Assembly: GCA_021818465.1 (NCBI GenBank)
Contig: JAKAEA010000001.1
Coordinates: forward strand, 169,972-233,971
Reading direction: 5' to 3'
DNA: 64,000 bases
DNA from: a bacterium
Lineage (GTDB): Bacteria; Patescibacteriota; Minisyncoccia; Phycocordibacterales; JAKAEA01
Shown here: positions 6,412-60,081 of the stretch, piece after piece
Layout of the letters: the number at the start of each line of letters is the position of its first letter
Numbering within the stretch: the stretch's first letter is position 1
Translations under genes and position numbers: made by a program
Notes under the pieces: model-generated
What the model saw: the letters and a program-made list of their open reading frames with translations, nothing else
Databases searched by the model: none
What the model was told of the DNA's origin: nothing

Positions 6412-7158
6412 ATGCACAAACTCTCTCAATTTTTTAATAATCAATTTGTGCCCGTTGGGGCACTACTTGGTGTGGCGCTGGTTATCGCGGCACTGATTGG
6501 TTCCTGGACGGCGATTGTAGTTAAAAATGCCAACAATACCTTGACAGTTACTGGTTCAGCAACGCAAAACGTTTCTGCGGATACAGCCAAATGGACTATC
6601 ACGGATAATCGCACAGCATTTCAAGCCGAGCTTCCCTCGGCTACCAATCAAGTGATTGCTGACGCTAAAATAATAACTGCTTTTCTCACGCATGCTGGTA
6701 TTTCTGCTGCCGATATTACACTCGGTGCTATTCACACTAATCAAGATTATTCTTATGTAAAATCTAATGTAAATTCTCCAACGCGCTATGTTGTTTCGCA
6801 AAACGTCACTGTTACTTCAAATAATCCGGAGCTCATTCAAAGTCTTGCGCAAAATACGTCGTCGCTTACTAATCAAGGTCTTATTTTGAATGTTCAAGAT
6901 CCACAATATCTCATTTCTAATTTACCGCAATATCGTATTTCATTGGCGGGCGCGGCGATGCAAGATGCTCGAGCACGCGCCGAGCAGATTGTGAAAGGAA
7001 GTGGCGAGTCGGTTGGCCCATTGCGTTCAGCCTCAACCGGCGCTGTTCAGGTGATGGCTGCCGACTCTATTGATGTTTCCGACTTTGGCACCTACGACAC
7101 GGGCACCATTAATAAAACTGTTATGGTTACCGTTCGCGCTACCTTTGCAGTGCAGTAA
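6412..7158 (+). CDS. SIMPL-domain (DUF541) secreted/membrane-anchored protein
   Basis: N-terminal hydrophobic segment then LTVTGSATQNVSADTAKWTI... typical of the SIMPL/26-kDa periplasmic immunogenic protein family. ATG at 6412 chosen to avoid overlap with the upstream gene. Confidence 0.45.
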   Translation: MHKLSQFFNNQFVPVGALLGVALVIAALIGSWTAIVVKNANNTLTVTGSATQNVSADTAKWTITDNRTAFQAELPSATNQVIADAKIITAFLTHAGISAADITLGAIHTNQDYSYVKSNVNSPTRYVVSQNVTVTSNNPELIQSLAQNTSSLTNQGLILNVQDPQYLISNLPQYRISLAGAAMQDARARAEQIVKGSGESVGPLRSASTGAVQVMAADSIDVSDFGTYDTGTINKTVMVTVRATFAVQ

Positions 7159-8546: not shown

Positions 8547-8726
8547 CTTTTTCTAGTAGCACTCTTTTGAGTAGACTATTTTTCTATAATACCAAAACCT
8601 TCTAAAGTACTTTTCTTCATCTGCGTATTATAACAAAATAAGAGTGACACCCATAACGTTCGATTACAATCTGGTCTCACGTTTGACTAACACAAAGAAG
8701 GAATTAAGGCCACTGAAGATTCAATG

Positions 8727-8800
8727 TCCACCCCCTTGGATTCGAACCAAGGACCGCCGAGGTATAAGCTCGGTGCTCTAACCAGCTGAGCTAGGGGTGG
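8727..8800 (-). tRNA. tRNA-Ile with anticodon UAU (reads AUA)
   Basis: Minus-strand sequence CCACCCCTAGCTCAGCTGGTTAGAGCACCGAGCTTATACCTCGGCGGTCCTTGGTTCGAATCCAAGGGGGTGGA folds as a cloverleaf. Anticodon loop CTTATAC gives anticodon TAT. Discriminator A. Confidence 0.7.
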
Positions 8801-8835: not shown

Positions 8836-11004
8836 CTACTCAAAGTGGATTTCGTGCTGGCGCGCGGTGGCGGCGACTTTGAGAGTGGGGTGGTGGACGA
8901 GCTCGGGGTCGGCCTCTATGAGGCGGCGAGCCTCTTGGCGAGCCGCCTCCACCATAGCCTGATTTTTCAGAGCTTCCATAGCAACATCGGAAAGCCCCCA
9001 TTGTTTGATGCCATACAATTGACCAGCGCCACGCAATTGTAAATCAGCTTCGGCCAGTTCAAAACCATTCTTGGCAGTTGCCAACGCTTTGAGTCGGTCC
9101 GCGGTTTTTTGTGAACCACTTTCGGTGAATACGTAGCAGTATGCTTGCTCGCTCGAGCGGATGACACGCCCACGCAATTGATGGAGTTGCGCTAGGCCAA
9201 AACGTTCCGCCCCCTCTATTATTATAACGGTGGCGTTGGGTACATTAACACCGACTTCTACGAGCGAGGTGGCTACCAAGATGTCAATTTTTTTGTCGCG
9301 AAAATCAAGCATGGTTTTTTCTTTGTTGGCGGTGGTCATTTTGCCATGAAGCGGCGCTACGTGATATTCAGGAAAAATATCTTTCTTAAGACGTCGCGCT
9401 TCGGCTTTGACCGATTTTGCTTCAAGAAGCACTTCTTCATCAGGATCAGGCTCGTCGATTCTCGGACAGATAACGTAAACCTGACGTCCAGCTTCAAGCT
9501 CGGCGCGTACTTTTTCGTACACGCTGTCGCGATGATCGGGGCGGACGATTTCGGTAATGATGGGCTTACGGCCAGCGGGTAGTTCATCAAGAAGTGTGAG
9601 ATCAAGGTCACCGAAAATAGTGAGTGCTAAGGTGCGCGGAATTGGCGTGGCGGTCATGGAAAGCAAGTGGGGCAGGTGAGTATCTTTGCGAGCGAGCTTG
9701 CGCCGTTGGGCGGTGCCGAAACGATGTTGTTCATCGATAATAACACAAGCAAGATGTTTAAATTGCACTGCTTTTTGAATAAGTGCATGGGTACCAATTA
9801 AAATGGGAATTTCACCGTTCGCCACCCATTTCAAAAGTTGTGAGCGAGAGATATCGGTCCAACCATGCGGATTTACTTTTGAGGGAAATTTTTTACAACC
9901 GGAGGAAGTGATGAGGCCGACCTGTGTGCCAAGATGAAAAAAATAACTAATAAATGATTCAAAATGTTGATTAGCGAGAATCTCTGTCGGACACATATAA
10001 GCAACTTGGAGTGTTCCAAAATTCTGGCCCTGTGGTCGACTAGAGACGATGGCGTAGGCGCTTGCTGCTGCTACGGCGGTTTTGCCAGAACCAACATCGC
10101 CTTCTAAGAGGCGCGACATTGGTTGGTTGCGAGAAAAATCTTCTAAAATAGTCGCTACAGCTTTTTTTTGAGCGGCGGTTTCTTTAAAAGGAAAGTGGCT
10201 GACGAAATCAACAAGGTCGGCCGGCGTTTTCCGAATGGAAAACGCCGGCTCACGTTGCACCGTCTGTCGCTCGGCTTGCTTGGCGAGTTGAATAAAAAAA
10301 ACTTCTTCAAATGCAAAACGTTTTCGGGCTACGGTAGCGTTTTCTTGACTGTGAGGTACGTGAATCCAAATAAGCGCGCTTTTGAGGCTTGGCAGTTTGT
10401 ATTTTTCCAAAATGTCGCTCGGAATTGGATCGACAAGCGAATCAAGAAATGCTTGATCGCTGAGTATTTTTTTGACGACATGAAAAAGCCAACGCGATGA
10501 AAGTCCGCGGCTCTCGGGATACACTGGAAAAAGCGCCGCCGCTTCGGTAGATCGGTTGCCAAATAATGAGGAACCAACAGTCTGTATTTTATCAACGAGC
10601 TCATATTCAGGATTAGCAAGATAGAGCGCACCATTTTTACGTGCAGTAACGCGACCGGTAAATTTTGCGTTGGTACCTTCGCCGAGCATCTTGGCAATAT
10701 ACGGTTGGTGAAACCAGACTGCTTCCAGTGAACCAGTCTCATCGGTGATGAGTGCGGTGGCTCGAGTAATGTTACTGCGAAATCCTTTACCGAGTGTGAG
10801 TTTCGAGGCTCTACCGTAAATAGACACTGTTTCGCCAGCAGCGAGGTCGCGAATATTTCGTACGGCACTGACGTCACTGTAACGAATAGGAACGTGATAC
10901 AACACATCGCCTACGGTGCGTAGTTTCAATTTAGCCAAACCACGCCGTAAATCAACATCAATGATGCGCGTAATTTTTTCCAGTGGTGTGGTGAGTGTTA
11001 TCAT
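8836..11004 (-). CDS. recG: ATP-dependent DNA helicase RecG
   Basis: 722 aa. Wedge domain, Walker A (GDVGSGKT), DEQH box (IIDEQHRFG), helicase C motifs. Start overlaps the stop of the upstream gene (ATGA). Confidence 0.9.
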   Translation of the reverse strand: MITLTTPLEKITRIIDVDLRRGLAKLKLRTVGDVLYHVPIRYSDVSAVRNIRDLAAGETVSIYGRASKLTLGKGFRSNITRATALITDETGSLEAVWFHQPYIAKMLGEGTNAKFTGRVTARKNGALYLANPEYELVDKIQTVGSSLFGNRSTEAAALFPVYPESRGLSSRWLFHVVKKILSDQAFLDSLVDPIPSDILEKYKLPSLKSALIWIHVPHSQENATVARKRFAFEEVFFIQLAKQAERQTVQREPAFSIRKTPADLVDFVSHFPFKETAAQKKAVATILEDFSRNQPMSRLLEGDVGSGKTAVAAASAYAIVSSRPQGQNFGTLQVAYMCPTEILANQHFESFISYFFHLGTQVGLITSSGCKKFPSKVNPHGWTDISRSQLLKWVANGEIPILIGTHALIQKAVQFKHLACVIIDEQHRFGTAQRRKLARKDTHLPHLLSMTATPIPRTLALTIFGDLDLTLLDELPAGRKPIITEIVRPDHRDSVYEKVRAELEAGRQVYVICPRIDEPDPDEEVLLEAKSVKAEARRLKKDIFPEYHVAPLHGKMTTANKEKTMLDFRDKKIDILVATSLVEVGVNVPNATVIIIEGAERFGLAQLHQLRGRVIRSSEQAYCYVFTESGSQKTADRLKALATAKNGFELAEADLQLRGAGQLYGIKQWGLSDVAMEALKNQAMVEAARQEARRLIEADPELVHHPTLKVAATARQHEIHFE

Positions 11005-11822
11005 TGAGCAAGACTAAAACGTTTATTATGATACACAATAAAACCTTCTGTTGTTAGTGCAGCCAAAATTTTTTCTAGATGTGAAGTGGCTGGTGTTATG
11101 TTACGTTCTACTAGGTGTTGTTGTAGTGTGCGGCGCGTGGTGGGGGCGATGCTTATATATTTTAATATTTGACCGCGTATGTGGCGATCAGAACCGATAA
11201 AACGGTTTTGGCGGGCATAGTGTGTACTGCGTTGGCTAACGTTACCCACTGTTTTTTTGAGGTGTGCGCCATAGTCCATAAGAGCCCAGTACCATTCGCG
11301 CGGTCGAGTATGGTCAAGTGTTTTTTCAATAAATGGTACAAGATCGCGATCGTTCACTTTTTGTTTTGTGTTGAAAAAATGGTGAATAAATACAGTGCGA
11401 ATATTTGTTTCAATTAAAATTGTCGGTTGATTAAATGCAAACGTGAGAATAGCTTGTGCGGTATATGGCCCAATACCAGGAAGAGCAAGAAGCGAGTCGT
11501 AGTCACTGGGGAATTTTTTATTTTTACTGAGGATGGTGACTGCACGGTGGAGAGCAAGAGCTCGACGATTGTAACCCAAACCTTGCCACATTGTCAGTAT
11601 CTCAGAACGTGGAGCAAGTGCTACTTTTGAGGAAGTGGGGAAACGCCGCAACCACGCGCGGTATTTTGGGATGACCCGATCAACTTGCGTTTGCTGCAGC
11701 ATTATTTCTGAAACAAGAATGTGATAGGGATTACGAGTTTCTCGCCAAGGTAGTGAACGGCCGTGGTGTTTAAAATGCCCCCACACTTTTTTCTGAAAAG
11801 CTTTATAGGACAGTTTAGACAT
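11001..11822 (-). CDS. HhH-GPD base-excision DNA glycosylase (MutY/Nth-like; no obvious 4Fe-4S Cys cluster)
   Basis: Helix-hairpin-helix plus Gly/Pro-rich loop (LLALPGIGPYTAQAIL) and conserved Asp. Translationally coupled to recG. Confidence 0.7.
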   Translation of the reverse strand: MSKLSYKAFQKKVWGHFKHHGRSLPWRETRNPYHILVSEIMLQQTQVDRVIPKYRAWLRRFPTSSKVALAPRSEILTMWQGLGYNRRALALHRAVTILSKNKKFPSDYDSLLALPGIGPYTAQAILTFAFNQPTILIETNIRTVFIHHFFNTKQKVNDRDLVPFIEKTLDHTRPREWYWALMDYGAHLKKTVGNVSQRSTHYARQNRFIGSDRHIRGQILKYISIAPTTRRTLQQHLVERNITPATSHLEKILAALTTEGFIVYHNKRFSLAQ

Positions 11823-11941
11823 AAAAATATACTACCACGGATAGGTATAAAAAAGAACATAAATAAAAATAATGTCAAGTTGACCGAAAAACGAGCAGAG
11901 AGTAATGTGACATCATAAAAATAGTATTTAGTAAAGGGCGT

Positions 11942-12982
11942 ATGACAAAAATAACATTATTTACAGCCATAGTGGTAAGTATTTTTGCGGCAATTGCTAC
12001 ACCGGCCTTTGCTTTTACACCATCTCTTTCCGTTTCTCCCGTTAGTAATAATATGGTTGCAATTACCGTTAATGGTGATGCAAACTCAAGTATTCAACTC
12101 TATTATTTTCCATACAACCAAAATTATAACGGCGCTTCATTAGCAGCAACAATTGGTTCTACCAATAATGCTGGCTACTTCTCAACGGTAGTGCCAGCAT
12201 CAAGCTACAATATTCCCGTGGGGGCAACAGTTTTTGTGATCGTTAACAATCAGCAATCGTCACGAATAAGTTGGCCAATGGCAACGGGGTACTATAACGG
12301 TTCGTATCCTCAACCATATCCGTATCAAGTGACACCAGTATCGGTTGGTGTTAATCAAACATCGAGTGTAACCAATCAAAATGCCGGAACATACATGGTA
12401 TTTTCAAATTCAAATCCTACTGTGGTGTCCGCAACCGCTAGTGGCAATGTGATTACGTTTAGTGGCGCTAGTGCTGGTACGGCCAGTGTGCTTGTGTGTC
12501 CAGCGGCTTACGGTTCTGTGTATGGTTACAACTATAATTACAACTATAACTACAATTATAATTACAATTACAACGGTTCTTATAATAATTATGCTGGTCA
12601 GTGTACAAAATATTTAGTGACGGTAACGCCAGCACTTACGTTTAGTCAGAATAATGTGACGCTCTATGGTATTGGACAAAGTCAATCGGTGCGCATTGGA
12701 GGTGGTTGGGGGTATGTCTCGTATCCGTATAATTACTACAATGCGTATTATTTGAATGGTAACACTAATCCCAGTGCGGTTTCAGCATCAATTAGTGGAT
12801 CTATTTTAAGTGTGTACAGTGTTGGTTATGGCGGTGCAACCCTTACTGTATGTGCCGCCAACGGAGCCTGCGGTCATATCTATGTTTCAGTGAATGGCGG
12901 CAATAATTATTACTACTCACCGTATGTATATCCCTACTACCCGTATTATTACCAACAAAACTATTTTCCTAATCCATACTAA
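11942..12982 (+). CDS. secreted Tyr/Asn-rich repeat protein
   Basis: Signal peptide (MTKITLFTAIVVSIFAAIATPAFA). Central (YN)8 repeat and Tyr-rich C-terminus (YVYPYYPYYYQQNYFPNPY). Confidence 0.6.
   Translation: MTKITLFTAIVVSIFAAIATPAFAFTPSLSVSPVSNNMVAITVNGDANSSIQLYYFPYNQNYNGASLAATIGSTNNAGYFSTVVPASSYNIPVGATVFVIVNNQQSSRISWPMATGYYNGSYPQPYPYQVTPVSVGVNQTSSVTNQNAGTYMVFSNSNPTVVSATASGNVITFSGASAGTASVLVCPAAYGSVYGYNYNYNYNYNYNYNYNGSYNNYAGQCTKYLVTVTPALTFSQNNVTLYGIGQSQSVRIGGGWGYVSYPYNYYNAYYLNGNTNPSAVSASISGSILSVYSVGYGGATLTVCAANGACGHIYVSVNGGNNYYYSPYVYPYYPYYYQQNYFPNPY
12523..12576 (+). repeat. hexanucleotide microsatellite (AAYTAY)n encoding the (Tyr-Asn)n tract
   Basis: acaactataattacaactataactacaattataattacaattacaac, about 8 imperfect hexamer units, in frame. 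Confidence 0.8.
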
Positions 12983-49618: not shown

Positions 49619-51375
49619 GCAAGAATCACAAATACGTTTTTGTTATTGGCGGTGTTATGTCCGGCGTCGGCAAGGGTATTGCCACCTCTGCCATCGGTCA
49701 AATTCTTCAAGCAAAAGGTTTTCGGATCAATCCAATCAAGATTGATCCGTATTTAAATGTGGATGCTGGTACCATGAACCCCACCGAGCACGGTGAAGTA
49801 TTCGTACTTGATTCTGGTTTGGAAACCGATCAAGACATGGGCAACTACGAGCGCTTCTTGGAAATGAATTTAACGCCCGAAGATTATATGACGAGCGGCA
49901 TGATCTATAAACACGTCATTGAGCGTGAACGCAACCTCGGCTATGGTGGCAAGTGCGTGGAAGCTATTCCGCATATCACTGGCGAAATTGTGCGTCGCAT
50001 TATGCGCGCAGCGGAAAAAACTCGTTCCGATATCTCGCTCATAGAAATCGGCGGCACGGTCGGTGATTATCAGAACATGATGTTTTTAGAAGCAGCGCGC
50101 ATTTTGCGCTTGCGTCAGCCGGAAAGCGTATGTTTCGTGTTGGTTAGCTATTTACCTGTGCCTTCAAAACTTGGTGAAATGAAAACGAAGCCGACGCAAA
50201 CAGCAGTGCGAATGCTGAATAGTTACGGTATTCAGCCAGACATTATTATTGCGCGCTCCACCCATCCGCTTGATGCACGTCGCAAAGAAAAAATAGGAGT
50301 GTCGTGTAATGTGCACGGCGACCGCGTCATTTCCGCACCGGACATTGATTCTGTGTACGATGTACCTTTGAATTTTGAAAAAGATCACATTGGCGAAACT
50401 ATTTTGGACGTGTTACGGATGAAGCCAAAACATAATGGCACAGCTTTGGCATCGTGGAAAAAATTTGTGGCCAAGACTAAAAACGGCACGCGCGATGTTA
50501 CGATTGCTGTAGTGGGGAAGTATTTTGATTCTGGTGACTTCGTACTTTCTGACGCATATTTGTCAGTGATTGAAGCGATCAAGTTTTCGTCCTACTGGCA
50601 CAATGCGCGACCCAAGCTCACGTGGATAAATGCGAAAGAGTATGAGACTGGCATGCGTAAGGTAAGTGAGCTGGCCGCTTTCGATGGCATTATTGTTCCT
50701 GGTGGCTTCGGTACCTCTGGCATTGAAGGGGTTATCAGCGCCGTGCAATATGCTCGTGAACATAAAATTCCGTTCCTTGGTCTTTGTTACGGTATGCAAT
50801 TGCTTACGGTAGAATTTGCTCGTCATGTTGCTAAAATTCGCAACGCCCATACTGTTGAAGTTGATCCGCAGACCGATGCGCCTATCATCGACATTATGCC
50901 TGATCAAAAAAAGTTTCTCGCTTCTGGTCGGTATGGTGCCACGATGCGTCTCGGTGCATATCCCGCTAAGCTCAAGAAGGGAACTATTGCTCGTGATGCC
51001 TATGGTACCGAAAAAATTTCCGAACGTCATCGCCATCGCTACGAAGTTAATCCGGCTTTCATCAATAAACTTCTTGCCGCTGGTCTTGTGTTTTCTGGCA
51101 CCTCGCCTGACGACACACTTATGGAAATTGCTGAATTGCCACGCGAAGTGCATCCATTTATGCTCGGTACGCAATTTCATCCAGAATTAAAAGCGCGGCC
51201 GTTGGCACCTCACCCGCTCTTCGATGCTTTCATTAGTGCCGCTCTGAAGTCGCGCCCCCTGCTTGTGCATAAACAAAAAACAATTGATGCAAAGAAACAA
51301 AAAGCTCCAATTCCATCGAAAAAAATTTCTTCCCTCAAGCTCTTGAAGAAAACCGCTTTTTCCAGTATTGTGTAA
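49615..51375 (+). CDS. pyrG: CTP synthase
   Basis: N-terminal synthetase domain (KYVFVIGGVMSGVGKGI) and C-terminal class I glutamine amidotransferase domain (GLCYGMQ, His-Glu). Confidence 0.95.
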   Translation: MSKNHKYVFVIGGVMSGVGKGIATSAIGQILQAKGFRINPIKIDPYLNVDAGTMNPTEHGEVFVLDSGLETDQDMGNYERFLEMNLTPEDYMTSGMIYKHVIERERNLGYGGKCVEAIPHITGEIVRRIMRAAEKTRSDISLIEIGGTVGDYQNMMFLEAARILRLRQPESVCFVLVSYLPVPSKLGEMKTKPTQTAVRMLNSYGIQPDIIIARSTHPLDARRKEKIGVSCNVHGDRVISAPDIDSVYDVPLNFEKDHIGETILDVLRMKPKHNGTALASWKKFVAKTKNGTRDVTIAVVGKYFDSGDFVLSDAYLSVIEAIKFSSYWHNARPKLTWINAKEYETGMRKVSELAAFDGIIVPGGFGTSGIEGVISAVQYAREHKIPFLGLCYGMQLLTVEFARHVAKIRNAHTVEVDPQTDAPIIDIMPDQKKFLASGRYGATMRLGAYPAKLKKGTIARDAYGTEKISERHRHRYEVNPAFINKLLAAGLVFSGTSPDDTLMEIAELPREVHPFMLGTQFHPELKARPLAPHPLFDAFISAALKSRPLLVHKQKTIDAKKQKAPIPSKKISSLKLLKKTAFSSIV

Positions 51376-51383
51376 TCGCATCT

Positions 51384-51454
51384 TGCGGGTTCGTCTAATG
51401 GTAGGACACATGCCTCTGGAGCATGGTATTGGGGTTCGAGTCCCTGACCCGCAG
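51384..51454 (+). tRNA. tRNA-Gln (anticodon CUG)
   Basis: TGCGGGTTCGTCTAATGGTAGGACACATGCCTCTGGAGCATGGTATTGGGGTTCGAGTCCCTGACCCGCAG. U1-A72 pair, 3-bp D stem. Anticodon loop CTCTGGA. Confidence 0.8.
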
Positions 51455-51546
51455 CAGTCTAGAAAAGTATCGAAGGACCCAAAGGGGTCATATTTGCCCG
51501 CTCTTTGTGGGCTGCTTCGATATGCGAGATAATTCCCACATTCCTG

Positions 51547-52521
51547 ATGGCTAAAAAGAAAAAGAAGAAAAATTCAGGTCCCAAAAATCAGCACTTCGTA
51601 CCCAGGTGCTATCTTTCGGAGTTTACAGACCCCAACACCCCTGCAGGTCAGGAGCCCTACGTCTGGGTGTTTGATAAAGACGGTAAGAATCCTCGAAAGA
51701 AGGCCCCTAAGAATATCTTTACCGAAACGCATCTGTATACCTTCGAATTCAACGGCGAAAAGGACTTCACCATAGAAAAGAGCCTTTCAGCCATCGAGTC
51801 AAAATACGCTTACATTTTCCGTAGCAAGATCAAAGAGAAAAAGCCCCTTTCGGAGTCGGAACACGCCTATCTCTGTGCCTTCGTGGCGGCACAACTGCAA
51901 CGCACTCTGCGGTTCAAACAAAACCAGGAGAATTTCATCCAGCAGCTTATCGATCATGGCACTCAGATGGCGATGGCCCATGGGGTGACCGATTCTCCGC
52001 AGGTCCGCGCATGGCAGGAGTACAAAAAGGACATCCATAAATTGCAGCTCGTGGATGGTATTCCGTTCTTAGCAAATATTCTCATGCAGATGAGTCTGGC
52101 GTTCCTTTGCTCAAAGAATCCGAACAAAAACTGGTTCATTACCTCTGACGATCCGTGCGTGTTATTCAACCCCGACCTCCAGTGGCAGAAATTCTACGGT
52201 CCCGGTTTTGGGCAACAGAATGTGCAGCTTACTCTGGCTTTAAGTCCGGAGATAATCGTTATGTTCACGTGGGCGAACTTCCATGGCTACTCGTACGTTG
52301 ATGGCGGGAACGTAGATAATATGCTCAACCGAATGACTCGAGCCCATGCTGATAAGGAATTCATCTCGCCTTATCCAAAGAAGAAATGGATATGGTTCAG
52401 CCGTGTTCCGCTTGACCCCTTCTTTCTTCTGAAAGTCGTAAAGAATGAGACCAAAGTGTTCCTGCATCGTGTGAGGAATAATTGGCAGTATAGGAAAATA
52501 TATGCGAGACGCAGAAAGTAA
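51547..52521 (+). CDS. DUF4238-like protein, paralog 1
   Basis: N-terminal HFVPRCYLSEF (HxxPxxYLxxF) and downstream TSDDP motif, the pattern I associate with DUF4238. Lys-rich N-terminus. ATG at 51547. Confidence 0.5.
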   Translation: MAKKKKKKNSGPKNQHFVPRCYLSEFTDPNTPAGQEPYVWVFDKDGKNPRKKAPKNIFTETHLYTFEFNGEKDFTIEKSLSAIESKYAYIFRSKIKEKKPLSESEHAYLCAFVAAQLQRTLRFKQNQENFIQQLIDHGTQMAMAHGVTDSPQVRAWQEYKKDIHKLQLVDGIPFLANILMQMSLAFLCSKNPNKNWFITSDDPCVLFNPDLQWQKFYGPGFGQQNVQLTLALSPEIIVMFTWANFHGYSYVDGGNVDNMLNRMTRAHADKEFISPYPKKKWIWFSRVPLDPFFLLKVVKNETKVFLHRVRNNWQYRKIYARRRK

Positions 52522-53398
52522 TTTCAAACAAGCCCTTGATGGGATTGTTGGGTCAAGTCGATCCGATCAAAAAAAGATAGAGGCGATCAGCGAACTGATT
52601 GCTGGCTTGAACACGCTCGAACAGAACCCTGAAATTCGCCTCGCTACCGAAACGGGAGCTGTGCTGGCGCGTAAGGCAAACAGGCCAGAAATGGCTGCGC
52701 AGCTTTGTCTTATGAGAGCTAAGGCAGAGATTGCTCAGGCGGGTGAGCTGATAGCCGAAATGAAGAACCTTAAAATGGCGATAGATTGGCGCGGTTTTGC
52801 CCTTGAGAAAGCAGCAAATCGGCACAAAGACTTAGAAAAGAAGTTGAACGCAACATGGAGTGCCACTCAGGCGTTTATCGATGCAGGCTACAAGCTACTT
52901 AATGAAAAGCCATACGTTGGAGCGGCCGCTTACTGCCACGATGCTGCAGGTCAGATTTATGGCCAGCATTATCTTCAGCTGAAACTCTACTACCTAACAA
53001 CAGGAAGACCGTGGCGTGCACGAATCGGGAATTACAAAATCAGCCGGTGGCTTAGCCTAGACGACTTTTTCGTGATTGATAAAAAGTCTCGCGCACATCT
53101 CCGAAAGGTTCGGAAGGATTGTCTAACCTCGCTTCACCAGGCAATGAAGCTCTATCGACAGATTAAGGCGCGAGATTATATAATCGACACGTACCTTGAC
53201 CTGGCTCTTGAGCATCATTCTTTTAATGATGCGATTCAGAGCAAGTTTTATCTTCTTCTTGCAAGGATGTTAATGAGCGTATGGGGTCTCTCGAATAATT
53301 CTCGACTTAAGCCGAGGCTTAAGTCGCTAGAAAAACTGCCTCTGATTGGCAGCGATCGGAACGATGATATTAGTCGACAGTTACCAAACCTTTCGTGA
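52502..53398 (+). CDS. hypothetical alpha-helical protein (partner of DUF4238 paralog 1)
   Basis: 298-aa ORF overlapping the upstream gene by 20 nt (translational coupling). No recognisable motif. Confidence 0.4.
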   Translation: MRDAESNFKQALDGIVGSSRSDQKKIEAISELIAGLNTLEQNPEIRLATETGAVLARKANRPEMAAQLCLMRAKAEIAQAGELIAEMKNLKMAIDWRGFALEKAANRHKDLEKKLNATWSATQAFIDAGYKLLNEKPYVGAAAYCHDAAGQIYGQHYLQLKLYYLTTGRPWRARIGNYKISRWLSLDDFFVIDKKSRAHLRKVRKDCLTSLHQAMKLYRQIKARDYIIDTYLDLALEHHSFNDAIQSKFYLLLARMLMSVWGLSNNSRLKPRLKSLEKLPLIGSDRNDDISRQLPNLS

Positions 53399-54647
53399 TT
53401 TTTAGCTTGGTTCGAAGGCAGTCCATCAGGTCGCGCTTCTCGAATATTGACCCTTCTGTCAGGAGGTACTTTGCATAGTTCCGTATATCGGCATCTTTCA
53501 CGGAATAGTTCTCATCAGCTTTGCCCATAATCCCTGAATGGAATTTCTTATGCCGCTCGATCTCGGCTTCAAGTTTCTTCTTGATACCTGATCGTTCCAG
53601 ATCAATTACATCAAAGATTCTTAGGAATTCTTTAATAAGCACTTTCTCTTCGGTATATCCTTCTTTGCAGTTGATGTTTCGGGAACGGGTGCAGCCGTAG
53701 TAAATGTATTTGGCGACGGAGCCGTCTTTAAGAGATTTGAATTTCTCCTGGGCGGTTATTCCTGAGCCACAAGCTCCACAGGAGAGGAGACGGGTGAAGG
53801 CAAATTCTTTATTTCGATTCTTCGATTTGACTTGGAGATGAAGCTGCTTCTGTACCTCCTCGAACAACTCCTTAGAAATGAGCGGCGTGTGCTTGCCCTG
53901 GAACCATCTGCCGCTCGCTTTCGGGTATTCAAATGTGCCGTAGTAGAAATGGTTATTCAGAATGACGTAGACGTTGCTCAAGGTGAGTGGCTTTCCGGTG
54001 CGGGTCTTGAACTTAATGTCTTTAAGCCATCGGTATACTTTTCGGCCGCTCCAGCCCTCGTTAGCTACTTTTTGAAAGAGGTCCTTGATAACAGGAGCTC
54101 TATCTGGGTCTACGAATACGACACCTTTCTGGTCTTTGTTTTTGGAGTTGAGATAGCCGGTTGGAGCGACACTTGGCCAAAGCCCGAGCTCGCACTTAGT
54201 CTTGAGGCCGCGCTTCACATTAATGCTCTTATTGTCGTTCTCGAGTTTTGCTTGGCTGCCGAGAATCATCAGGAGGAACTTCTCGTTTGGGTTGTTGGTA
54301 AACCGCTGGCTGTAGGTACGGATCTCTAAGAGCTTCTTCTGATCGAAGAGGTCCACGATCGCACCAAGGTCTCCCGCGTTGCGAGAGAGGCGGTCGGGGT
54401 GCCATACGAGGATTCCATCGAATTTGCCCTCACGGATATCCATCAGAAGCTTGTTGAAAACAGGCCGCTGGCCGGCATCCTTTGCGGAGTGCGACTCGCG
54501 ATACATATCGACCACATTCAGTCCATCTCGCTGGGCGAGGCTCAGCATCTCCTTGAGCTGGGAATCTATCGAAAGCGCCTGTTTCTCCTCGGCCTCGCTC
54601 GATTTCCGGGCATATAGGCAGTACCTGACGGGGTCCTGGTTTTCCAT
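53370..54647 (-). CDS. large serine recombinase (resolvase catalytic domain, recombinase domain, zinc-ribbon)
   Basis: N-terminus MENQDPVRYCLYARKSSEAEEKQALSIDSQ has the catalytic Ser in the YARxSS context. It continues DGILVWHPDRLSRN. Recombinase domain and a Cys pair (CGACGSG...CTRSR) follow. Start at the internal Met at 54647 preferred over the 498-aa ORF. Confidence 0.85.
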   Translation of the reverse strand: MENQDPVRYCLYARKSSEAEEKQALSIDSQLKEMLSLAQRDGLNVVDMYRESHSAKDAGQRPVFNKLLMDIREGKFDGILVWHPDRLSRNAGDLGAIVDLFDQKKLLEIRTYSQRFTNNPNEKFLLMILGSQAKLENDNKSINVKRGLKTKCELGLWPSVAPTGYLNSKNKDQKGVVFVDPDRAPVIKDLFQKVANEGWSGRKVYRWLKDIKFKTRTGKPLTLSNVYVILNNHFYYGTFEYPKASGRWFQGKHTPLISKELFEEVQKQLHLQVKSKNRNKEFAFTRLLSCGACGSGITAQEKFKSLKDGSVAKYIYYGCTRSRNINCKEGYTEEKVLIKEFLRIFDVIDLERSGIKKKLEAEIERHKKFHSGIMGKADENYSVKDADIRNYAKYLLTEGSIFEKRDLMDCLRTKLKITKGLVTVD

Positions 54648-54741
54648 ACAACACAACACATGCCCGAAGCGAGGGAAGAAGTCCAGTGGTGGATAGGTGG
54701 TAACTTTCAAGTGAATTTGACTTTGATCCATTTGATGCATT

Positions 54742-55053
54742 ATGATGGTAGGTATGGAAGAGTCAGTTTCTGGATACAAAGCAGTCAAGCGGCTTGCAGT
54801 AGAGCGGCCTGATTGGCTCCCCATTGTTCGAGAATGCTTGAATTTGCGGAAAGAGATCCATAACACCGATTTCGCTGGTGCATGGGTATATCAGCGCCTT
54901 CAAGAAAAGGGCGGACCGAAATTTTCAAACCTGCGTCTTCTTGTTAGCTTTGGCATCTTGAAGAAAGAGGCAACTTCGCGCGGTGGTCGACGCGCGTACT
55001 ATTCTTTCGTAGATCCTGAAGGGGTTGAGCGGGCACTTGGCGAGTTGAAATAA
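54742..55053 (+). CDS. small hypothetical protein, possible winged-helix DNA-binding protein
   Basis: 103-aa ORF divergent from the recombinase and immediately upstream of the MTase operon. The basic C-terminal half RLLVSFGILKKEATSRGGRRAYYSF is winged-helix-like. Confidence 0.3.
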   Translation: MMVGMEESVSGYKAVKRLAVERPDWLPIVRECLNLRKEIHNTDFAGAWVYQRLQEKGGPKFSNLRLLVSFGILKKEATSRGGRRAYYSFVDPEGVERALGELK

Positions 55054-55057: not shown

Positions 55058-56155
55058 ATGAAAGCGAAAGTTGCAAATACAAGCCTTCACGGCGCGAAAA
55101 AGGCGAAGAAAGACGAGTTTTACACTCAACTCGTCGATATCGAAAAGGAGCTGAAGCACTACAAAGACCAGTTTCGCGGCAAAGTAGTCTATTGCAATTG
55201 CGACGACCCATTCGAGAGCAATTTCTTCAAATATTTCGCCGCAAATTTCAACGCGCTCGGATTGAAGAAACTCATCACGACAAGTTTTGTAAAATCGCCT
55301 ATCGCTGGCGGGCAGTTGCCGCTCTTTGAAATGCAGGGACTAAAGCCCGACGGCAAAGAGCCGTTCAAAATTGAAATACGGGAAGTACCTGACGCAGACG
55401 GCGACGGCGCGATCAACCTTGATGACGTGAAGTATCTACTACAACACGACAAGAACACCGCAATCCCGCTGAAAGGCAACGGTGATTTCCGTAGCGACGA
55501 ATGCATAGAATTTCTTAAAGAGGCGGATATTGTTGTGACAAACCCGCCATTCTCGCTTTTCCGCGAATACATTTCGCAATTGGTAGAACATAATAAAAAA
55601 TTCCTTATCATCGGCAATATCAACGCCGTCACTTACAAAGAAGTGTTCCCTTTGGTTAAAGCAAACAAATTGTGGCTTGGCGCAAGTATCCATAGCGGCG
55701 ACCGTGAGTTTAGAGTGCCGGAAGACTACCCGCTAAACGCGGCCGGATACCGAGTTGATGGAGAAGGAAACAAATATATTCGCGTCAAAGGTGTGCGCTG
55801 GTTTACAAATCTTGATTATGACGAGCGCCACGACAGCATTGTGCTTTACAAAAAGTATTCGTCAAAAGAGTATCCGAAATACGATAACTACGACGCCATA
55901 AACGTGGATAAGACCGTCGATATTCCAATGGACTACAAAGGCGCTATCGGCGTACCAATTACTTTTCTTGATAAATACAGCCCCGACCAATTTACAATTT
56001 TGGGCGCGTTGATCTCCGGCCCACTCGGACAAGAGTTAGGAGCGACCAAAACGAAACAAATAAGGCCAAACGGAAAAACGACGATGGAATACGGGCCCAT
56101 TATCAAGACCAAAGGTTATTACGGAAGAATTGTCATTAAAAATAAAACACTATGA
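55058..56155 (+). CDS. putative N6-adenine DNA methyltransferase-like protein (gamma-class order: EFYT motif X then NPPF motif IV)
   Basis: DEFYTQ near the N-terminus and DIVVTNPPFS at about aa 165. No textbook glycine-rich motif I visible; VVYCNCDDPF occupies that position. Contains a DADGDGAINLDD loop. Confidence 0.5.
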   Translation: MKAKVANTSLHGAKKAKKDEFYTQLVDIEKELKHYKDQFRGKVVYCNCDDPFESNFFKYFAANFNALGLKKLITTSFVKSPIAGGQLPLFEMQGLKPDGKEPFKIEIREVPDADGDGAINLDDVKYLLQHDKNTAIPLKGNGDFRSDECIEFLKEADIVVTNPPFSLFREYISQLVEHNKKFLIIGNINAVTYKEVFPLVKANKLWLGASIHSGDREFRVPEDYPLNAAGYRVDGEGNKYIRVKGVRWFTNLDYDERHDSIVLYKKYSSKEYPKYDNYDAINVDKTVDIPMDYKGAIGVPITFLDKYSPDQFTILGALISGPLGQELGATKTKQIRPNGKTTMEYGPIIKTKGYYGRIVIKNKTL

Positions 56156-57243
56156 AAATCGAGCTACATAAAATCAAAATACGAGAAGTCGTTAACGGCT
56201 TCAAAGACAGCGCCGAGGAAGGTGTCGTGGCGTATGGCGGCAAGCTTGATGTCCGCCCGAAGTACCAGCGCGAGTTCGTCTACAAAGACAAGCAGCGCGA
56301 CGCCGTGCTTGATACGGTCAAGAAAGGATTCCCGCTCAACGTCATGTACTGGATGGTGCGCGAGGATGGCGGCTTTGAAGTGCTCGACGGCCAACAGCGC
56401 ACCATCAGTATCGGCCAGTATGTGAATGGCGACTTTTCGCTTGGCGACCGCTATTTCCATAACCTCATCAAAGAGGAGCAAGAGCAGACTTTGAACTACG
56501 AACTGATGATTTATTTCTGCGAAGGCACGGACAAAGAGCGGCTCGACTGGTTTAGGACTATCAATATTGCGGGCGAGAAACTAACAGACCAAGAGCTTCG
56601 AAATGCCGTGTATACCGGCCCGTGGCTTTCGGATGCAAAACTTAAATTCAGCAAGACCGGCTGCGCCGCGTATCACTTGGCGAACGATGGCGGAGCGCTT
56701 GTGAGCGGCTCGCCGATCCGCCAAGAGTATTTGGAAACTGCGCTCTCATGGATAAACAAGGGCGAGGTGGCGGATTACATGGCGAAGCATCAGCACGACA
56801 AGGACGCCGAGAAATTGTGGGCGTACTTTCAGGACGTAATAGCGTGGGTGCGAAAGACGTTCCCCAACTACCGCAAGGAAATGGCGCACGTGAATTGGGG
56901 CGAGCTGTACAACGAATACAAGGACAAAAAACTAAACGCCACCAAGCTTGAGACCGAGGTCAAGAAGCTCATGCAAGACGAGGACGTAACGAAAAAGTCC
57001 GGCATCTACCCGTATGTGTTGACCGGCAACGAACGCGAGCTTTCTATCCGTGCGTTTACCGACAAAATGAAGCGCGAGGCATACGAGCGGCAAGACGGCG
57101 TCTGCACATTCTGCAAAAAGAAGTTTGATATTTCGGAAATGGAGGCCGATCACATTACACCCTGGCACGAAGGTGGAAAAACAACAGCTGACAACTGCCA
57201 GATGCTCTGCAAACTGGATAACCGAACAAAGTCGGGGAAATGA
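56152..57243 (+). CDS. DUF262 (ParB-like, DGQQR motif) domain fused to C-terminal HNH nuclease
   Basis: N-terminal KYQREFVYK...EVLDGQQRTISI. C-terminal CTFCKKKFDISEMEADHITPWHEGGKTTADNCQMLCKLDN (HNH with Zn-binding Cys). Start overlaps the MTase stop (ATGA). Confidence 0.7.
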   Translation: MKIELHKIKIREVVNGFKDSAEEGVVAYGGKLDVRPKYQREFVYKDKQRDAVLDTVKKGFPLNVMYWMVREDGGFEVLDGQQRTISIGQYVNGDFSLGDRYFHNLIKEEQEQTLNYELMIYFCEGTDKERLDWFRTINIAGEKLTDQELRNAVYTGPWLSDAKLKFSKTGCAAYHLANDGGALVSGSPIRQEYLETALSWINKGEVADYMAKHQHDKDAEKLWAYFQDVIAWVRKTFPNYRKEMAHVNWGELYNEYKDKKLNATKLETEVKKLMQDEDVTKKSGIYPYVLTGNERELSIRAFTDKMKREAYERQDGVCTFCKKKFDISEMEADHITPWHEGGKTTADNCQMLCKLDNRTKSGK

Positions 57244-58922
57244 AATACATGCCTGAGATCGTTCACCAGTTTTCAAATGCAGTGAGCATTATCTTGCACA
57301 ATCCGATCTGGGAAACTCACTCCTCATACAACTTGGGCGTTGCAATCACGGCCATAGCCATAGTTGTTGCGTTTATTGAATTTATTGCAAACAGGCGAGA
57401 GCTAAGATTTAGTTTGAATTACAGAAAGAGACAAATGGCCCTATGGTTTGCTGTTGCGAGCATAGCATTAACGTTTTTGGGAGAATTAGACGGCCTTTTT
57501 CTTGGTTACCCCTTTATTTTTGAGACCAGTGGAGCGGTACTCATGATTGCCGCTATAGCGATTTATCTCAGATTAGTTCTTAGTCCACTCAAACGACTCA
57601 ATAAAAAACAAATCTCCGTCCTACAAGATATTTTGGCCGGAACATTGTCCAATGCTCATTTGGATAAACCACAAATCGTTCGTGGTTGTATGGAGCTATT
57701 TGAAAATTTGCTGGACCTTTCCTTAGACAACAAAGATGTTCGAGGCATTTTCAGAAATGCTTTCGCCAGTGATGTCTTCCTCAAATCTTTTTCTGAATCT
57801 TATTTTGTATTCGGACGTACAGTCGATTTCTATAGGCAGAAAAGAATAGAGGGTGGACACGATTTAGACCATCTTGAATTTTTTCTCAAGCGACTCATGA
57901 CCAAGTCACTTGAGAACGGCGAATCATTCTTGAATATGTTCATTGGACAAAAAATCTATCCAAATGCCCTGTTTTGCCTTGATGATGTGATGATAAACGA
58001 GAAAAACGATTCGGCGCTTCAAACTCTTTTTGGGGAATATGGATATAACGGATTGGATTATGTTGGTCAGTTAAATTACATAGATCTGGTCACTCGTTAT
58101 TTCAGACTGGTTTATCAGGAAAATAATCATATAAGCCTAAAAGACGGATATCAACGAAATTACGAGTTGAATGATGGTCTTATTGGGATTTTCTTTGAAC
58201 AAATCAGCAACTTTATTGAGAGGTGTTATGACCAAAAACACCTTGAGGCTCTGATCGATAAGACGGAGGGTTTTTCGTGGTACTACACCTGGGGGGTCAG
58301 AACTCGAGATAAGAGCGAGCACATAAGAGGAGACACCGGCAAGTTTCTATTTGATGTTTTCTATAACTCTATTAGCAAATACGAGATCGAAAATGAGGAA
58401 ATATTCAGATTGAAAGTACATCAGTTGTACGATCATTTTCTTGAGATGCAGGAGAACGGGGTTGAGAGTAACATCGCTTACGCCGTCTTCGTAGAAAAGT
58501 TAAAGAAAAAAATACTTGGCGACGGAAAGGATGGAGACATGCCAAACTACAAGGGTTATTTCCCGGCAATGATTCTGGTCTATTTCTATATGTTTGGTTT
58601 TTATGCTTTCTCGGAAAAGCAGAATGAGGCACAGGCGAGAGACTTGCACGTACCTGTTTTCTCAAAACTAGCTGAGGCGTTTCCTAAGCTTTATCAAGGT
58701 TTTAAACAAGAATTTTATGATGCGGAAACTCTCCCAGAAGGTAAAAAAGAATTGCTCGAAAAGCAGGGACGAGAGACTTTAGATCAGTTCTTAAAAAAGA
58801 ACATGGTCTATAACTTTGAAGAAAACTCGCTGTCATATTACTACAGCGGCAACGTACACAGCGCAAAAGTATTTCTGAATGATGTTCGCGACAAACAGAC
58901 GATCGAGCCGAAGAGATTATGA
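57240..58922 (+). CDS. hypothetical membrane-anchored alpha-helical protein (operon member 3)
   Basis: 560 aa. Three or four N-terminal TM helices, then a large soluble all-alpha domain and one further hydrophobic segment near aa 440. Start overlaps the upstream stop (ATGA). Confidence 0.4.
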   Translation: MKYMPEIVHQFSNAVSIILHNPIWETHSSYNLGVAITAIAIVVAFIEFIANRRELRFSLNYRKRQMALWFAVASIALTFLGELDGLFLGYPFIFETSGAVLMIAAIAIYLRLVLSPLKRLNKKQISVLQDILAGTLSNAHLDKPQIVRGCMELFENLLDLSLDNKDVRGIFRNAFASDVFLKSFSESYFVFGRTVDFYRQKRIEGGHDLDHLEFFLKRLMTKSLENGESFLNMFIGQKIYPNALFCLDDVMINEKNDSALQTLFGEYGYNGLDYVGQLNYIDLVTRYFRLVYQENNHISLKDGYQRNYELNDGLIGIFFEQISNFIERCYDQKHLEALIDKTEGFSWYYTWGVRTRDKSEHIRGDTGKFLFDVFYNSISKYEIENEEIFRLKVHQLYDHFLEMQENGVESNIAYAVFVEKLKKKILGDGKDGDMPNYKGYFPAMILVYFYMFGFYAFSEKQNEAQARDLHVPVFSKLAEAFPKLYQGFKQEFYDAETLPEGKKELLEKQGRETLDQFLKKNMVYNFEENSLSYYYSGNVHSAKVFLNDVRDKQTIEPKRL

Positions 58923-59821
58923 ATAAACAGAGTCGAAGCCATCATTATCTACCGCGACATTATCTCGAAGGCTTTAAAGGGAGCAACAGCGGTTTTTTCG
59001 TCTACGACAAACAGGAAGATAAAATCTTTCCCTCCAGCCCCGGCGCTACTTTCTTTGAAAATCACCTAAATACCGTCTACCTTCCTGACGGTAAAACCTC
59101 TGTATTCGTCGAAGACCAATACACAAACATTGAGAATGATTGCTGGCCCGCCATAGATAGGATAAGGACCTCCGACAGCAAGACCCTAATTACTCACGAG
59201 GACAAGGAATTCTTGCATCTCTTCTTGTCTTCGCTGTACTGGAGGCTTCCAATAAATTCATCGATGGCAGAGCAGTGGTCCAAGAGTGCATTCACTGACA
59301 CCAGTCCTGTCGATTACTTTCGTCTGAAAAACAAGCAAGGAAAATCGATACCGCGTCACATCGTAGATGCGATTAGGGACTCAGATGCATTCAAAAAATC
59401 ATTCAGATTGATCCTGTCCATGGCTCCTTTTCTCAAGGATAAGAGTTGGGGTCACAAGTTGCAAAACTGGCGATTTTTCTATCACCAAAACGGGCAGCGC
59501 TTCAACATTGTTGGCGATAATCCAATTCTGACCCGAACTGAAAATCACGAAGACCCAGTATCATTGTTGGACGAATTTGTATTTCCACTATCAGCGAGCA
59601 TAACAATCGTTAATACAAACCCCGTTCCAACAAAAGGCCTATCTCCGGAATTTACCCTTCAATTAGGTGTAGCGATGGTAGAGAGGGCGCGGCGGTTCGT
59701 CGTTTCTCACAACAAAGCTTGGCTAGAAGCAGTAGTAGGCCACTACAAAATTTATGCGAACGCGGGAATGAATCACCTGATTCTCGATCAATTATGCCTC
59801 ATGTTGCAACAGGCAGCCTAG
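58919..59821 (+). CDS. DUF4238-like protein, paralog 2 (operon member 4)
   Basis: N-terminal HHYLPRHYLEGF and downstream GDNPIL motif. Start overlaps the upstream stop (ATGA). Confidence 0.5.
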   Translation: MNKQSRSHHYLPRHYLEGFKGSNSGFFVYDKQEDKIFPSSPGATFFENHLNTVYLPDGKTSVFVEDQYTNIENDCWPAIDRIRTSDSKTLITHEDKEFLHLFLSSLYWRLPINSSMAEQWSKSAFTDTSPVDYFRLKNKQGKSIPRHIVDAIRDSDAFKKSFRLILSMAPFLKDKSWGHKLQNWRFFYHQNGQRFNIVGDNPILTRTENHEDPVSLLDEFVFPLSASITIVNTNPVPTKGLSPEFTLQLGVAMVERARRFVVSHNKAWLEAVVGHYKIYANAGMNHLILDQLCLMLQQAA

Positions 59822-59862: not shown

Positions 59863-60081
59863 TTATAGAAAATACTCGACCTTCTTTCCGTAAAGCTTCG
59901 CGAGTCGGTTTAGCCAAATAGCCTCAACTCGCAATTCTCCAAGTTCGATCTTAGATACCCAAGACTGTGAACAGCCGAGCTTTTCTGCTACTTCGGCCTG
60001 CGTAAGCCCAGCTTCCAAGCGGGCTTTCTTGAGTTTCTTCACGAACCCGGCCCGCTCATCGGTATGAATGGACTTCTTCAT
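59863..60081 (-). CDS. XRE-family (Cro/C1-type) HTH transcriptional regulator
   Basis: LTQAEVAEKLGCSQSWVSKIE, a classic HTH_3 signature. 72 aa. Confidence 0.8.
   Translation of the reverse strand: MKKSIHTDERAGFVKKLKKARLEAGLTQAEVAEKLGCSQSWVSKIELGELRVEAIWLNRLAKLYGKKVEYFL

Follow-up and report, generated by a model that had tools for sequence, protein, structure and literature searches.

Do four tightly packed genes in a CPR (Patescibacteria/Minisyncoccota-like) genome encode one new defense machine, or several modules sharing a transcript? The question arises at positions 55058–59821 of the window, the 64,000-nucleotide stretch of DNA analyzed here. A preliminary description took the four genes for a novel restriction-like system with a likeness to BREX, DISARM and Ssp, and read their overlaps as implying obligate co-expression and probably a complex. 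We favor another reading, to which we give a probability of about 0.7: the locus is a recombinase-associated defense island beside a tRNA-Gln gene, with three modules in one transcription unit. These would be a classical Type II restriction-modification (R-M) pair (g1 and g2), an autonomous unit that rides restriction operons for expression and mobility (g3), and a gene (g4) that joined behind g3 in this genome alone, with a divergent DUF4238 copy at the island's opposite end.

Gene arrangement

The four open reading frames all lie on the plus strand: g1 (55058–56155, 365 aa), g2 (56152–57243, 363 aa), g3 (57240–58922, 560 aa) and g4 (58919–59821, 300 aa). ATGA stop/start overlaps were read directly from the sequence at all three junctions, in line with the preliminary description, with the qualification that the g2/g3 overlap depends on the start chosen for g3. 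In the database g3 is called as 557 aa, from which we infer a start at Met4 (57249). A GGGGA Shine-Dalgarno-like motif has a spacing that fits this start better, and its use leaves a 5-nt gap after g2 in place of an overlap. The corresponding gap is 11 nt in the closest relative, locus L050. Under either start g2 and g3 are tightly packed. No terminator-like sites were found on the plus strand within or between g1–g4.

Dense operon packing is common in small CPR genomes. The three successive 4-nt overlaps are dense packing and no evidence of an obligate complex, and the separate distributions of g3 and g4 described below likewise undercut the proposed obligate partnership. The tight ATGA g3/g4 junction and the absent terminator nevertheless mean that g4 is co-expressed with g3 here; a functional link between the two, local to this locus, may exist.

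A Type II restriction-modification pair

The product of g1 matched the Pfam EcoRI_methylase family over its full length (PF13651, E = 4e-149, positions 2–345 of 345) and the PADLOC MTase_II model PDLC03297 end to end (E = 9e-129), and the NPPF motif was found in its translation. We therefore agree with its earlier assignment as a gamma-class N6-adenine methyltransferase; by family membership it is predicted to be an EcoRI-family enzyme, the modification half of a Type II system. The g2 product carries a GmrSD_N/DUF262 domain with DGQQR (residues 34–154) and an HNH domain (318–361) by Pfam, as had been proposed, and that HNH domain, CxxC...H...N...C residues included, is intact. It matched the PADLOC REase_II model PDLC03418 (E = 3e-136, 1–363 of 372); its other notable PADLOC matches, among them NsnA, PD-T4-2_A and PtuB, cover DUF262/HNH parts only. 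The g2 protein is accordingly a putative DUF262 (GmrSD_N/ParB-like) plus HNH endonuclease, the restriction half. The restriction-modification logic originally read into the pair is thus borne out by the models. Judged from family membership, cleavage would be methylation-sensitive: g1 would mark adenines in host DNA and g2 would cut unmarked incoming DNA.

GmrSD-type Type IV restriction was considered for g2 and rejected. GmrSD, BrxU and SspE are modification-dependent nucleases combining DUF262 with DUF1524 (PMC12707154), and g2 shares with them the N-terminal DUF262/GmrSD_N domain with DGQQR and a C-terminal His-Me finger nuclease. In g2, however, that nuclease is a classical HNH (PF01844) instead of DUF1524, and whereas GmrSD-type enzymes act alone on modified DNA, g2 is paired with a methylase in both CPR and plasmid loci. 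Because it matched a Type II restriction endonuclease model, g2 most likely cuts unmodified DNA.

The pair is widespread. Near-full-length g2 homologues were found in 43 plasmid records; among the 12 plasmid matches listed, 8 had an adjoining EcoRI-family methylase, and the homologues next to such methylases are 54–61% identical to g2. The plasmids belong to Proteobacteria, Actinomycetota, Bacillota and Bacteroidota. At the three plasmid loci inspected (Aeromonas, Sulfitobacter and Gordonia) the methylase gene precedes the nuclease gene with a 4-nt overlap and unrelated neighbors, and the same arrangement recurs in about 17 CPR loci. Matched families, order, overlap and protein sizes are as on these three plasmids. 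The difference is that g3 is appended in CPR genomes, while no g3- or g4-like annotation follows the pair at the three inspected plasmid loci. From these sequence comparisons, g1 and g2 have the features of a catalogued, ordinary Type II R-M pair conserved across unrelated genomes.

One further difference concerns a possible regulator. In L001 a co-oriented small HTH gene occupies the controller (C) protein position ahead of the pair, and the window has no such gene. A co-oriented ORF of about 70 aa lies directly ahead of the methylase in L001, L019, L025 and L030; the two that were scanned are HTH_3-annotated (L001) or have an HTH match (L025). The window instead contains a 72-aa XRE-type HTH protein (59863–60081, minus strand; Pfam HTH_31/HTH_3) convergent with g4, with weak PADLOC matches to Control_protein and HTH_VI. 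It could be a C protein that has been displaced, or else an unrelated regulator.

g3 follows diverse nuclease modules

The genomic context of g3 was compared across 31 non-redundant loci with a visible upstream region, window included; most are short metagenomic contigs. In 26 of them the gene immediately 5' of g3, on the same strand, is a nuclease gene or what remains of one. A g2-type nuclease is directly upstream in 17 of the 31, only an HNH-tail remnant of g2 in three (L025, L016 and L017), and another nuclease module in six. These six comprise Type III Mod and Res (L004), Type III Res (L035; PDLC03649, E = 0), MTase_II with REase_II PDLC03572 (L010), AAA_21-RloB-DpnI (L012), SNase-Excalibur (L018) and Vsr (L038). 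In all six the g3 homologue shares the strand of the gene before it, at spacings from a 4-nt overlap to a 30-nt gap. The L025 remnant shares 83% identity with g2 residues 274–363 and stands behind an M5C methylase with R.HinP1I. Even where g2 is reduced to 78–114 aa or a restriction endonuclease is frameshifted (L025, L016, L010), g3 is still there. No recognizable nuclease was found directly upstream in the remaining 5 of 31 (L023, L032, L007, L005 and L055). No recurrent gene family was found downstream of g3, the downstream genes differing in every locus.

One ancestral arrangement may underlie all 17 g2-type loci, in which case about 8 of 13 independent associations would be with a nuclease. 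Pairwise identity matrices of g2 and g3 showed no co-divergence (Mantel r = 0.005, p = 0.47), with identities spanning 39–97% for g2 and 73–93% for g3. The GC content is about 51% across g2 versus 40–42% across g3. Unrelated nucleases precede g3, and its divergence does not follow that of g2; it is a conserved partner of restriction operons generally and is not specific to the g1 and g2 pair.

The g3 protein has three predicted transmembrane (TM) helices (about 32–52, 61–82 and 91–114) followed by an all-alpha, helical-repeat domain of about 445 aa, which is cytoplasmic by the positive-inside rule. The preliminary description had likewise given it N-terminal TM helices and no assigned function. 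No relative was found in Pfam, PADLOC, PHROG or PDB, and neither a catalytic motif nor a fold relative was detected. The family is small and patchy, with 51 representatives confined almost entirely to CPR/Patescibacteria assemblies, and no fused domains were found in it, distant members included. TM1 is the most conserved segment (top-residue frequency 0.87), and TM1 and a C-terminal beta motif are the most conserved parts of the protein, which argues that the membrane segment does work beyond anchoring.

g4 and the island

The g4 protein matched DUF4238 over its full length (PF14022, E = 4e-28, 99 bits against a cutoff of 27), as first proposed. A DUF4238 protein from a hotspot in E. coli P2 prophages is sufficient on its own to protect E. 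coli against T7 (Rousset et al. 2022, PMC9122126). The PADLOC DUF4238-Pers model was not matched by g4, which is therefore a distant relative of that validated protein. Homologues of g4 (48–56% identity) are solitary genes in L044–L049, one of them adjoining a Type I R-M system; single-gene occurrence and a full-length PF14022 match are shared with the P2-hotspot system, whereas g4 is joined to another operon by an ATGA overlap. No DUF4238 gene was found in any of the 30 other non-redundant g3 loci, by tblastn or by the DUF4238 HMM against all ORFs. DNA homology between the window and L050 covers 55058–58897 only, from the start of g1 to the end of g3; downstream of g3, L050 has a 143-aa ORF and then an IS3 element. 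These comparisons suggest that g4 is an independently acquired single-gene defense candidate outside the conserved g1-g2-g3 block.

Upstream, the housekeeping gene pyrG ends at 51375 and is followed by tRNA-Gln(CTG) (51384–51455, plus strand; ARAGORN, and Rfam tRNA at 55 bits). This tRNA gene, immediately ahead of the first defense gene, probably marks where the island begins on the left. That first defense gene, dufB (51505–52521, plus strand, 338 aa), encodes a second full-length DUF4238 protein (PF14022, E = 1e-34, 120 bits against a cutoff of 27). It is a g4 paralogue with only 21% identity in alignment, and its match to PADLOC DUF4238-Pers (PDLC03000) is weak and partial (residues 184–256, E = 2e-7). 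An unannotated ORF, partB (52502–53398, plus strand, 298 aa), overlaps dufB by 20 nt; it had no match in Pfam, PADLOC, NCBIfam or PHROGs and no relative in viral contigs or any fetched locus.

A large serine recombinase (53370–54866, minus strand; Pfam Resolvase, Recombinase and Zn_ribbon_recom) is the mobility gene of the island, consistent with the recombinase-bearing setting noted previously. Its NCBIfam match is CcrB-like and below cutoff, and it is 58% identical to the recombinase at the same position in L050. Because its homology to relatives begins near residue 78, its translation probably starts further downstream than the GTG at 54866. In other loci too, L008 and L031 among them, the cassette is flanked by recombinases. 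A 103-aa ORF in the interval between recombinase and g1 (54742–55053, plus strand) had no family match in Pfam, PADLOC, NCBIfam or PHROGs and tblastn found no counterpart in L050, where a 108-aa ORF unrelated to it takes this position.

Alternative explanations

That g1–g4 make up a single obligate complex of four components, restriction-like and of a new type, with g3 and g4 as essential subunits, would account for their co-orientation, the three ATGA junctions, the lack of an internal terminator and their location in a mobile island. We find it scarcely credible. The preliminary description had proposed HMM searches and a check of co-occurrence and gene order, and had named beforehand a failure of the four families to co-occur elsewhere as telling against a novel system; they occur together in 0 of 30 other g3 loci, all of which are without DUF4238. 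The g1-g2-g3 block does recur in conserved order, as in L050, but g4 is not part of it. Moreover, homology to L050 stops at the end of g3, the g1 and g2 pair occurs alone across phyla, g4 homologues occur alone, and g3 follows unrelated nucleases without co-diverging with g2. No PADLOC model of BREX, DISARM, Ssp or Dnd (signature proteins such as PglZ/BrxC, DrmA/DrmB or SspBCD/DndB–E) was matched by g1–g4 or their neighbors, and the suggested likeness to such systems is not supported.

The remaining alternatives concern g3. It could be a generic membrane tether or scaffold, its helical-repeat domain docking the nuclease or methylase encoded upstream and so concentrating restriction where foreign DNA enters, away from the host nucleoid. 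Tight coupling 3' of nuclease genes at 26 of 31 loci, the cytoplasmic large domain and a fold like HEAT/ARM-type protein-binding solenoids fit this idea, and older localization work assigned both EcoRI and EcoKI to the membrane. A single scaffold, however, would need to bind proteins as different as HNH, PD-(D/E)XK HinP1I, DpnI, Type III Res and an SNase that is probably secreted. Moreover, g3 shows no co-evolution with g2, outlasts nuclease decay (L025, L016, L010) and is kept without an adjacent nuclease (L032, L007), and conservation is lower in its putative docking domain than in TM1. We regard the tether as unlikely. We give less credence still to a non-defense role, with g3 a resident CPR membrane protein for housekeeping or DNA/nucleotide scavenging whose 5' flank is an insertion hotspot for restriction cassettes. 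Recombination breakpoints do fall at the 5' end of g3 or inside the g2 tail, g3 varies far less than the genes preceding it, its partners include the non-defense nucleases SNase and Vsr, and five loci have no directly adjacent nuclease. Yet g3 has no conserved chromosomal neighborhood, its downstream genes varying at every locus; it travels with the R-M cassette beside serine recombinases, IS elements and prophage genes, and its tiny, patchy family is unlike that of a housekeeping gene. The block shared with L050 begins precisely at g1 and stops at g3, and therefore g3 moves with the cassette and is not left in place.

A possible membrane accessory of restriction operons

The loci compared show that g3 is associated with nuclease operons; under the favored three-module reading we do not think that it is a fixed nuclease subunit. 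Our best guess at its mechanism, made with low confidence and drawn from gene context and topology, is that it works autonomously as a back-up at the level of the membrane. On the inner membrane face it would form a second layer of defense, as a sensor or effector answering infection or restriction failure.

Abortive-infection genes occur within or near restriction operons, as with PrrC within EcoprrI, RloC, and AbiE near R-M systems. Each is a gene for something other than a nuclease subunit, co-transcribed with R-M and thought to be a second line when restriction fails, and by analogy they may be the closest guide to how g3 works. In contrast to them, g3 is a membrane protein accompanying many R-M types and not one, and it has no sequence or fold similarity to these proteins. 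EcoprrI/Stp is mentioned in PMC12707154. Zorya (ZorAB with ZorCD) and Kiwa (KwaA with KwaB) follow a similar logic, an inner-membrane component with a cytoplasmic nuclease or DNA-binding effector, although g3 matched no PADLOC model of either and differs in its architecture of three TM helices plus an alpha-solenoid and in having no dedicated conserved partner.

As known kinds, the R-M pair and DUF4238 make most of the locus ordinary. The locus does supply a second DUF4238 example with a confident structural model, in a family that is mechanistically opaque, and the fold is without a solved relative. The new item is g3. CPR bacteria are thought to be poor in defense systems and are hard to study, and the lead here is a family without detectable relatives whose gene follows at least eight different nuclease modules of these bacteria on their 3' side and is kept nearly constant while the modules are swapped, truncated or frameshifted. 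Tentatively, and as a possibility more than an expectation, g3 may represent a new class of restriction accessory: a membrane module behind any DNA-cleaving defense operon (Type II, IIM or III), coupling restriction to the envelope at DNA entry or setting off a membrane-level abortive response once restriction is overwhelmed. Such a layer is undescribed for R-M systems and is so far seen only in CPR/Patescibacteria assemblies. If true, a portable membrane accessory would be a new layer in R-M biology, bearing on whether restriction acts at the membrane.

Results and Discussion

Three modules are stacked at this locus. They are a known restriction-modification (R-M) pair, a single-gene defence of known family and a promiscuous new membrane "rider", meaning a recurrent 3'-terminal gene behind diverse nuclease operons. 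The four genes of the locus, g1 (55058–56155), g2 (56152–57243), g3 (57240–58922) and g4 (58919–59821), were found on the + strand at the positions assigned in a preliminary description. The domain calls made there were all correct (g1, EcoRI methylase; g2, DUF262/GmrSD_N plus HNH; g4, DUF4238). All three ATGA junctions are likewise present in the sequence, with the g2/g3 overlap hinging on the start codon chosen for g3. The database call for g3 is 557 aa long (P0001) and presumably begins at Met4 (57249), where a GGGGA motif is better spaced and the g2/g3 gap would be 5 nt; this gap is 11 nt in the closest relative, locus L050. The ATGA junctions, and the lack of any terminator-like site found on the + strand within or between g1–g4, make it almost certain that the genes form one transcript in this genome. 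An Rfam scan of the locus returned no RNA elements.

By sequence, g1 and g2 are identified as a known Type II R-M pair. Full-length matches were obtained for g1 to PF13651 (E = 4e-149) and, end to end, to the PADLOC model MTase_II PDLC03297 (E = 9e-129). g2 matched REase_II PDLC03418 end to end (E = 3e-136, residues 1–363 of a 372-position model). Near-full-length g2 homologues were present in 43 plasmid-collection records. The best 12 of these showed 54–61% identity and came from Chryseobacterium, Macrococcoides, Aeromonas, Sulfitobacter, Variovorax, Gordonia and others; in 8 of the 12, an "adenine-specific methyltransferase EcoRI family protein" was annotated under the match. The M-then-R order and 4-nt overlap were the same in all three plasmid loci inspected, in which unrelated genes come next and no g3- or g4-like annotation lies near the pair. 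The N-terminal domain of g2 is common to the Type IV enzymes GmrSD, BrxU and SspE (PMC12707154). Its nuclease domain, however, is a classical HNH and not DUF1524, and g2 is always accompanied by a methylase; a Type II reading is therefore the better one. Literature and cluster names gave no named REBASE enzyme for the pair; the annotations there read just "DUF262 domain-containing protein" or "EcoRI family". Apparent loss of g1 from four related loci (L021, L026, L028 and L031) was ruled out, as the tblastn HSPs are full length without stops. Judged from their families, g1 would methylate host adenines and g2 would cut unmethylated DNA, possibly in an NTP-dependent manner via the DUF262 domain.

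A co-oriented HTH_3 protein precedes the methylase in L001, a CPR relative, at the usual controller-protein position, and similar small HTH genes lie upstream of and co-oriented with the methylase in some relatives. In the window, an XRE-type HTH gene (59863–60081) is convergent with g4 and may be a displaced controller gene.

g4 (DUF4238 match, E = 4e-28) is a module separate from g1-g2-g3. L050 is a Minisyncoccota MAG whose proteins are 90% (g1), 89% (g2) and 83% (g3) identical to those of the window. At the DNA level the two are homologous from the first base of g1 (55058) to 58897, about 25 nt before the g3 stop, and not beyond. Downstream of its g3, L050 has a 143-aa ORF and then an IS3 element. 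Using tblastn with g4 and its paralogue, a second DUF4238 gene in the window, we detected no copy in the other g3-bearing loci. Because the two proteins are only 21% identical, a DUF4238 HMM was also built and searched against 1,919 stop-to-stop ORFs from all loci; its matches were limited to both copies in the window and to loci retrieved for g4 homologues. The novel four-gene system put forward in the preliminary description is not supported by either the gene content of other g3 loci or the point at which L050 homology stops. Homologues of g4 (48–56% identity) are solitary and occur in varied contexts, one adjoining a Type I R-M system; a viral-contig scan for DUF4238 found nothing. A DUF4238 protein from a P2 prophage hotspot protects E. 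coli from T7 on its own (PMC9122126). g4 did not match the PADLOC model of that subfamily, which makes it a distant DUF4238 family member, and by family resemblance it would act alone.

The surrounding island spans from tRNA-Gln (51384–51455) to roughly 60.1 kb; besides g3 and the Type II R-M pair, it contains a large serine recombinase and two divergent DUF4238 genes. The tRNA-Gln(CTG) gene lies between pyrG and the first island gene. Insertion beside a tRNA gene is suggested; a search for flanking att-like repeats gave only short, chance-level repeats. The recombinase and R-M block is flanked by the two DUF4238 paralogues. The first, a 338-aa gene within 51505–53398, shares 20 nt with an unannotated helical ORF of 298 aa (partB, 52502–53398) that had no relatives in libraries, retrieved loci or viral contigs; together they could be a two-gene DUF4238 variant. 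Elsewhere in the window, a tRNA-Ile gene (8726–8800) has the anticodon TAT, an uncommon decoding strategy. Most bacteria decode AUA with a lysidine-modified CAT tRNA.

The preliminary description gave g3 no function, and g3 could be assigned to no family: searches of Pfam, PADLOC, NCBIfam, PHROGs and PDB sequences gave no match. A lenient Pfam scan of 31 members yielded only weak TM-region matches (DUF7139, DUF2231), and 24 distant members contained no fused domains. The family is small: a search of 5.8 billion proteins gave 82 matches, and even a profile search recovered no more than 51 of 1.84 billion cluster representatives. Neither 72,556 plasmids nor 50,697 phage genomes contained a relative; the one IMG/VR match agrees in arrangement and identities with L031. 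The sources that carry a name are MAGs of Minisyncoccota, Paceibacterota, Taylorbacteria and Saccharibacteria. In addition, three third-party MAGs bearing the label "uncultured Gammaproteobacteria" (L015, L017 and L019) have g3 homologues sharing 75–81% identity with those of CPR; mis-binning of CPR contigs is the probable cause, not a genuine presence outside CPR. g3 is the real finding at this locus, new with respect to the five collections searched. It may nevertheless be identical to LdgA or DdgA, which are Patescibacteria-restricted defence proteins (PMC12366544).

In the AlphaFold model of g3, which is of good quality (pLDDT 84, pTM 0.81), three TM helices at the N-terminus are followed by an all-alpha domain, and the C-terminus forms a small beta sheet. 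The positive-inside rule predicts an N-out, C-in topology, which would place the large domain in the cytoplasm. Conservation peaks in TM1 (residues 28–52, "SSYNLGVAITAIAIVVAFIE"), whose top-residue frequency of 0.87 is equalled by a C-terminal NSLSYYYSG motif. The invariant residues of TM1 are S28, L32 and G33 together with the S29/Y30/N31 positions. Since TM1 tops conservation, the membrane segment is read as functional and not as a passive anchor.

The g3 loci are mostly short metagenomic contigs, and 31 of them, duplicates removed, have a visible upstream region. In 17 of these (including the window, L050, L001, L008 and L014), g3 is preceded by a nuclease of the g2 type, together with the methylase if the contig extends far enough; these 17 may reflect a single ancestral event. 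Only an HNH-tail remnant of g2 is present in three (L025, L016 and L017), and five have no recognisable nuclease immediately upstream (L023, L032, L007, L005 and L055). The remaining six carry a different nuclease module: Type III Mod+Res (L004), Type III Res alongside a PDC-S18-like gene (L035), an N6_N4 MTase paired with a frameshifted REase_II, PDLC03572 (L010), AAA_21-RloB-DpnI-AF_1447 (L012), SNase-Excalibur (L018) and Vsr (L038). In these six, g3 is on the same strand, spaced from a 4-nt overlap to a 30-nt gap from the preceding gene. L025 (5364–9710) is a direct snapshot of an R-M module swap ahead of g3. There, a 114-aa remnant, 83% identical to g2 residues 274–363, is joined to an intact g3 and preceded by a complete HTH, M5C methylase and R.HinP1I module that took the place of g1 and most of g2.

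Other features of these loci were noted. In L010 (1483–2530) the Type II REase is broken up into two overlapping ORFs of 84 and 278 aa, with methylase and g3 intact; L011 has the split at identical coordinates and L034 has ORFs of equal sizes. This restriction gene is either frameshifted or phase-variable. Immediately after the L004 g3 homologue is a gene for a Pycsar-type transmembrane effector, PycTM (6438–6890), and farther downstream this dense defence island encodes a further DUF262 protein as well as a large methylase. No gene family recurs downstream of g3, the downstream-ORF clusters all being duplicate contigs, and g3 is thus the terminal conserved gene. The g1-g2-g3 cassette of L001 directly adjoins a 16S rRNA gene and five tRNA genes (10175–12633), where gene callers left a gap; this accounts for the 3-kb "gene-free" stretch after g3 and rules out a hidden component there.

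Across 13 trio loci, pairwise identity ranged from 39 to 97% for g2 (median 69) and only from 73 to 93% for g3 (median 82), and the two matrices were uncorrelated (Mantel r = 0.005, p = 0.47). L021 and L003, for example, are 89% identical in g3 and 41% in g2. GC content falls from ~51% across g2 to ~40–42% across g3. The flat correlation, identity spans and GC drop indicate that restriction modules are exchanged ahead of a near-constant g3. Together with the persistence of g3 where the nuclease is truncated or frameshifted, this argues against a specific, obligate nuclease–g3 complex. One rival idea, that g3 tethers restriction enzymes generically to the membrane, is weakened because its partners are so diverse and it does not co-evolve with g2. 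Another is that g3 is a resident gene without a role in defence and that insertions are concentrated at its 5' flank. This too is weakened, as g3 has no conserved chromosomal context and the g1–g3 block moves as a unit.

The interest of the locus lies entirely in g3. We tentatively propose that g3 would be an autonomous membrane-level module to which restriction operons supply expression and mobility, with any resemblance to PrrC/EcoprrI being one of logic only. Such a module might add a second layer of defence, through envelope sensing or an abortive membrane effect.
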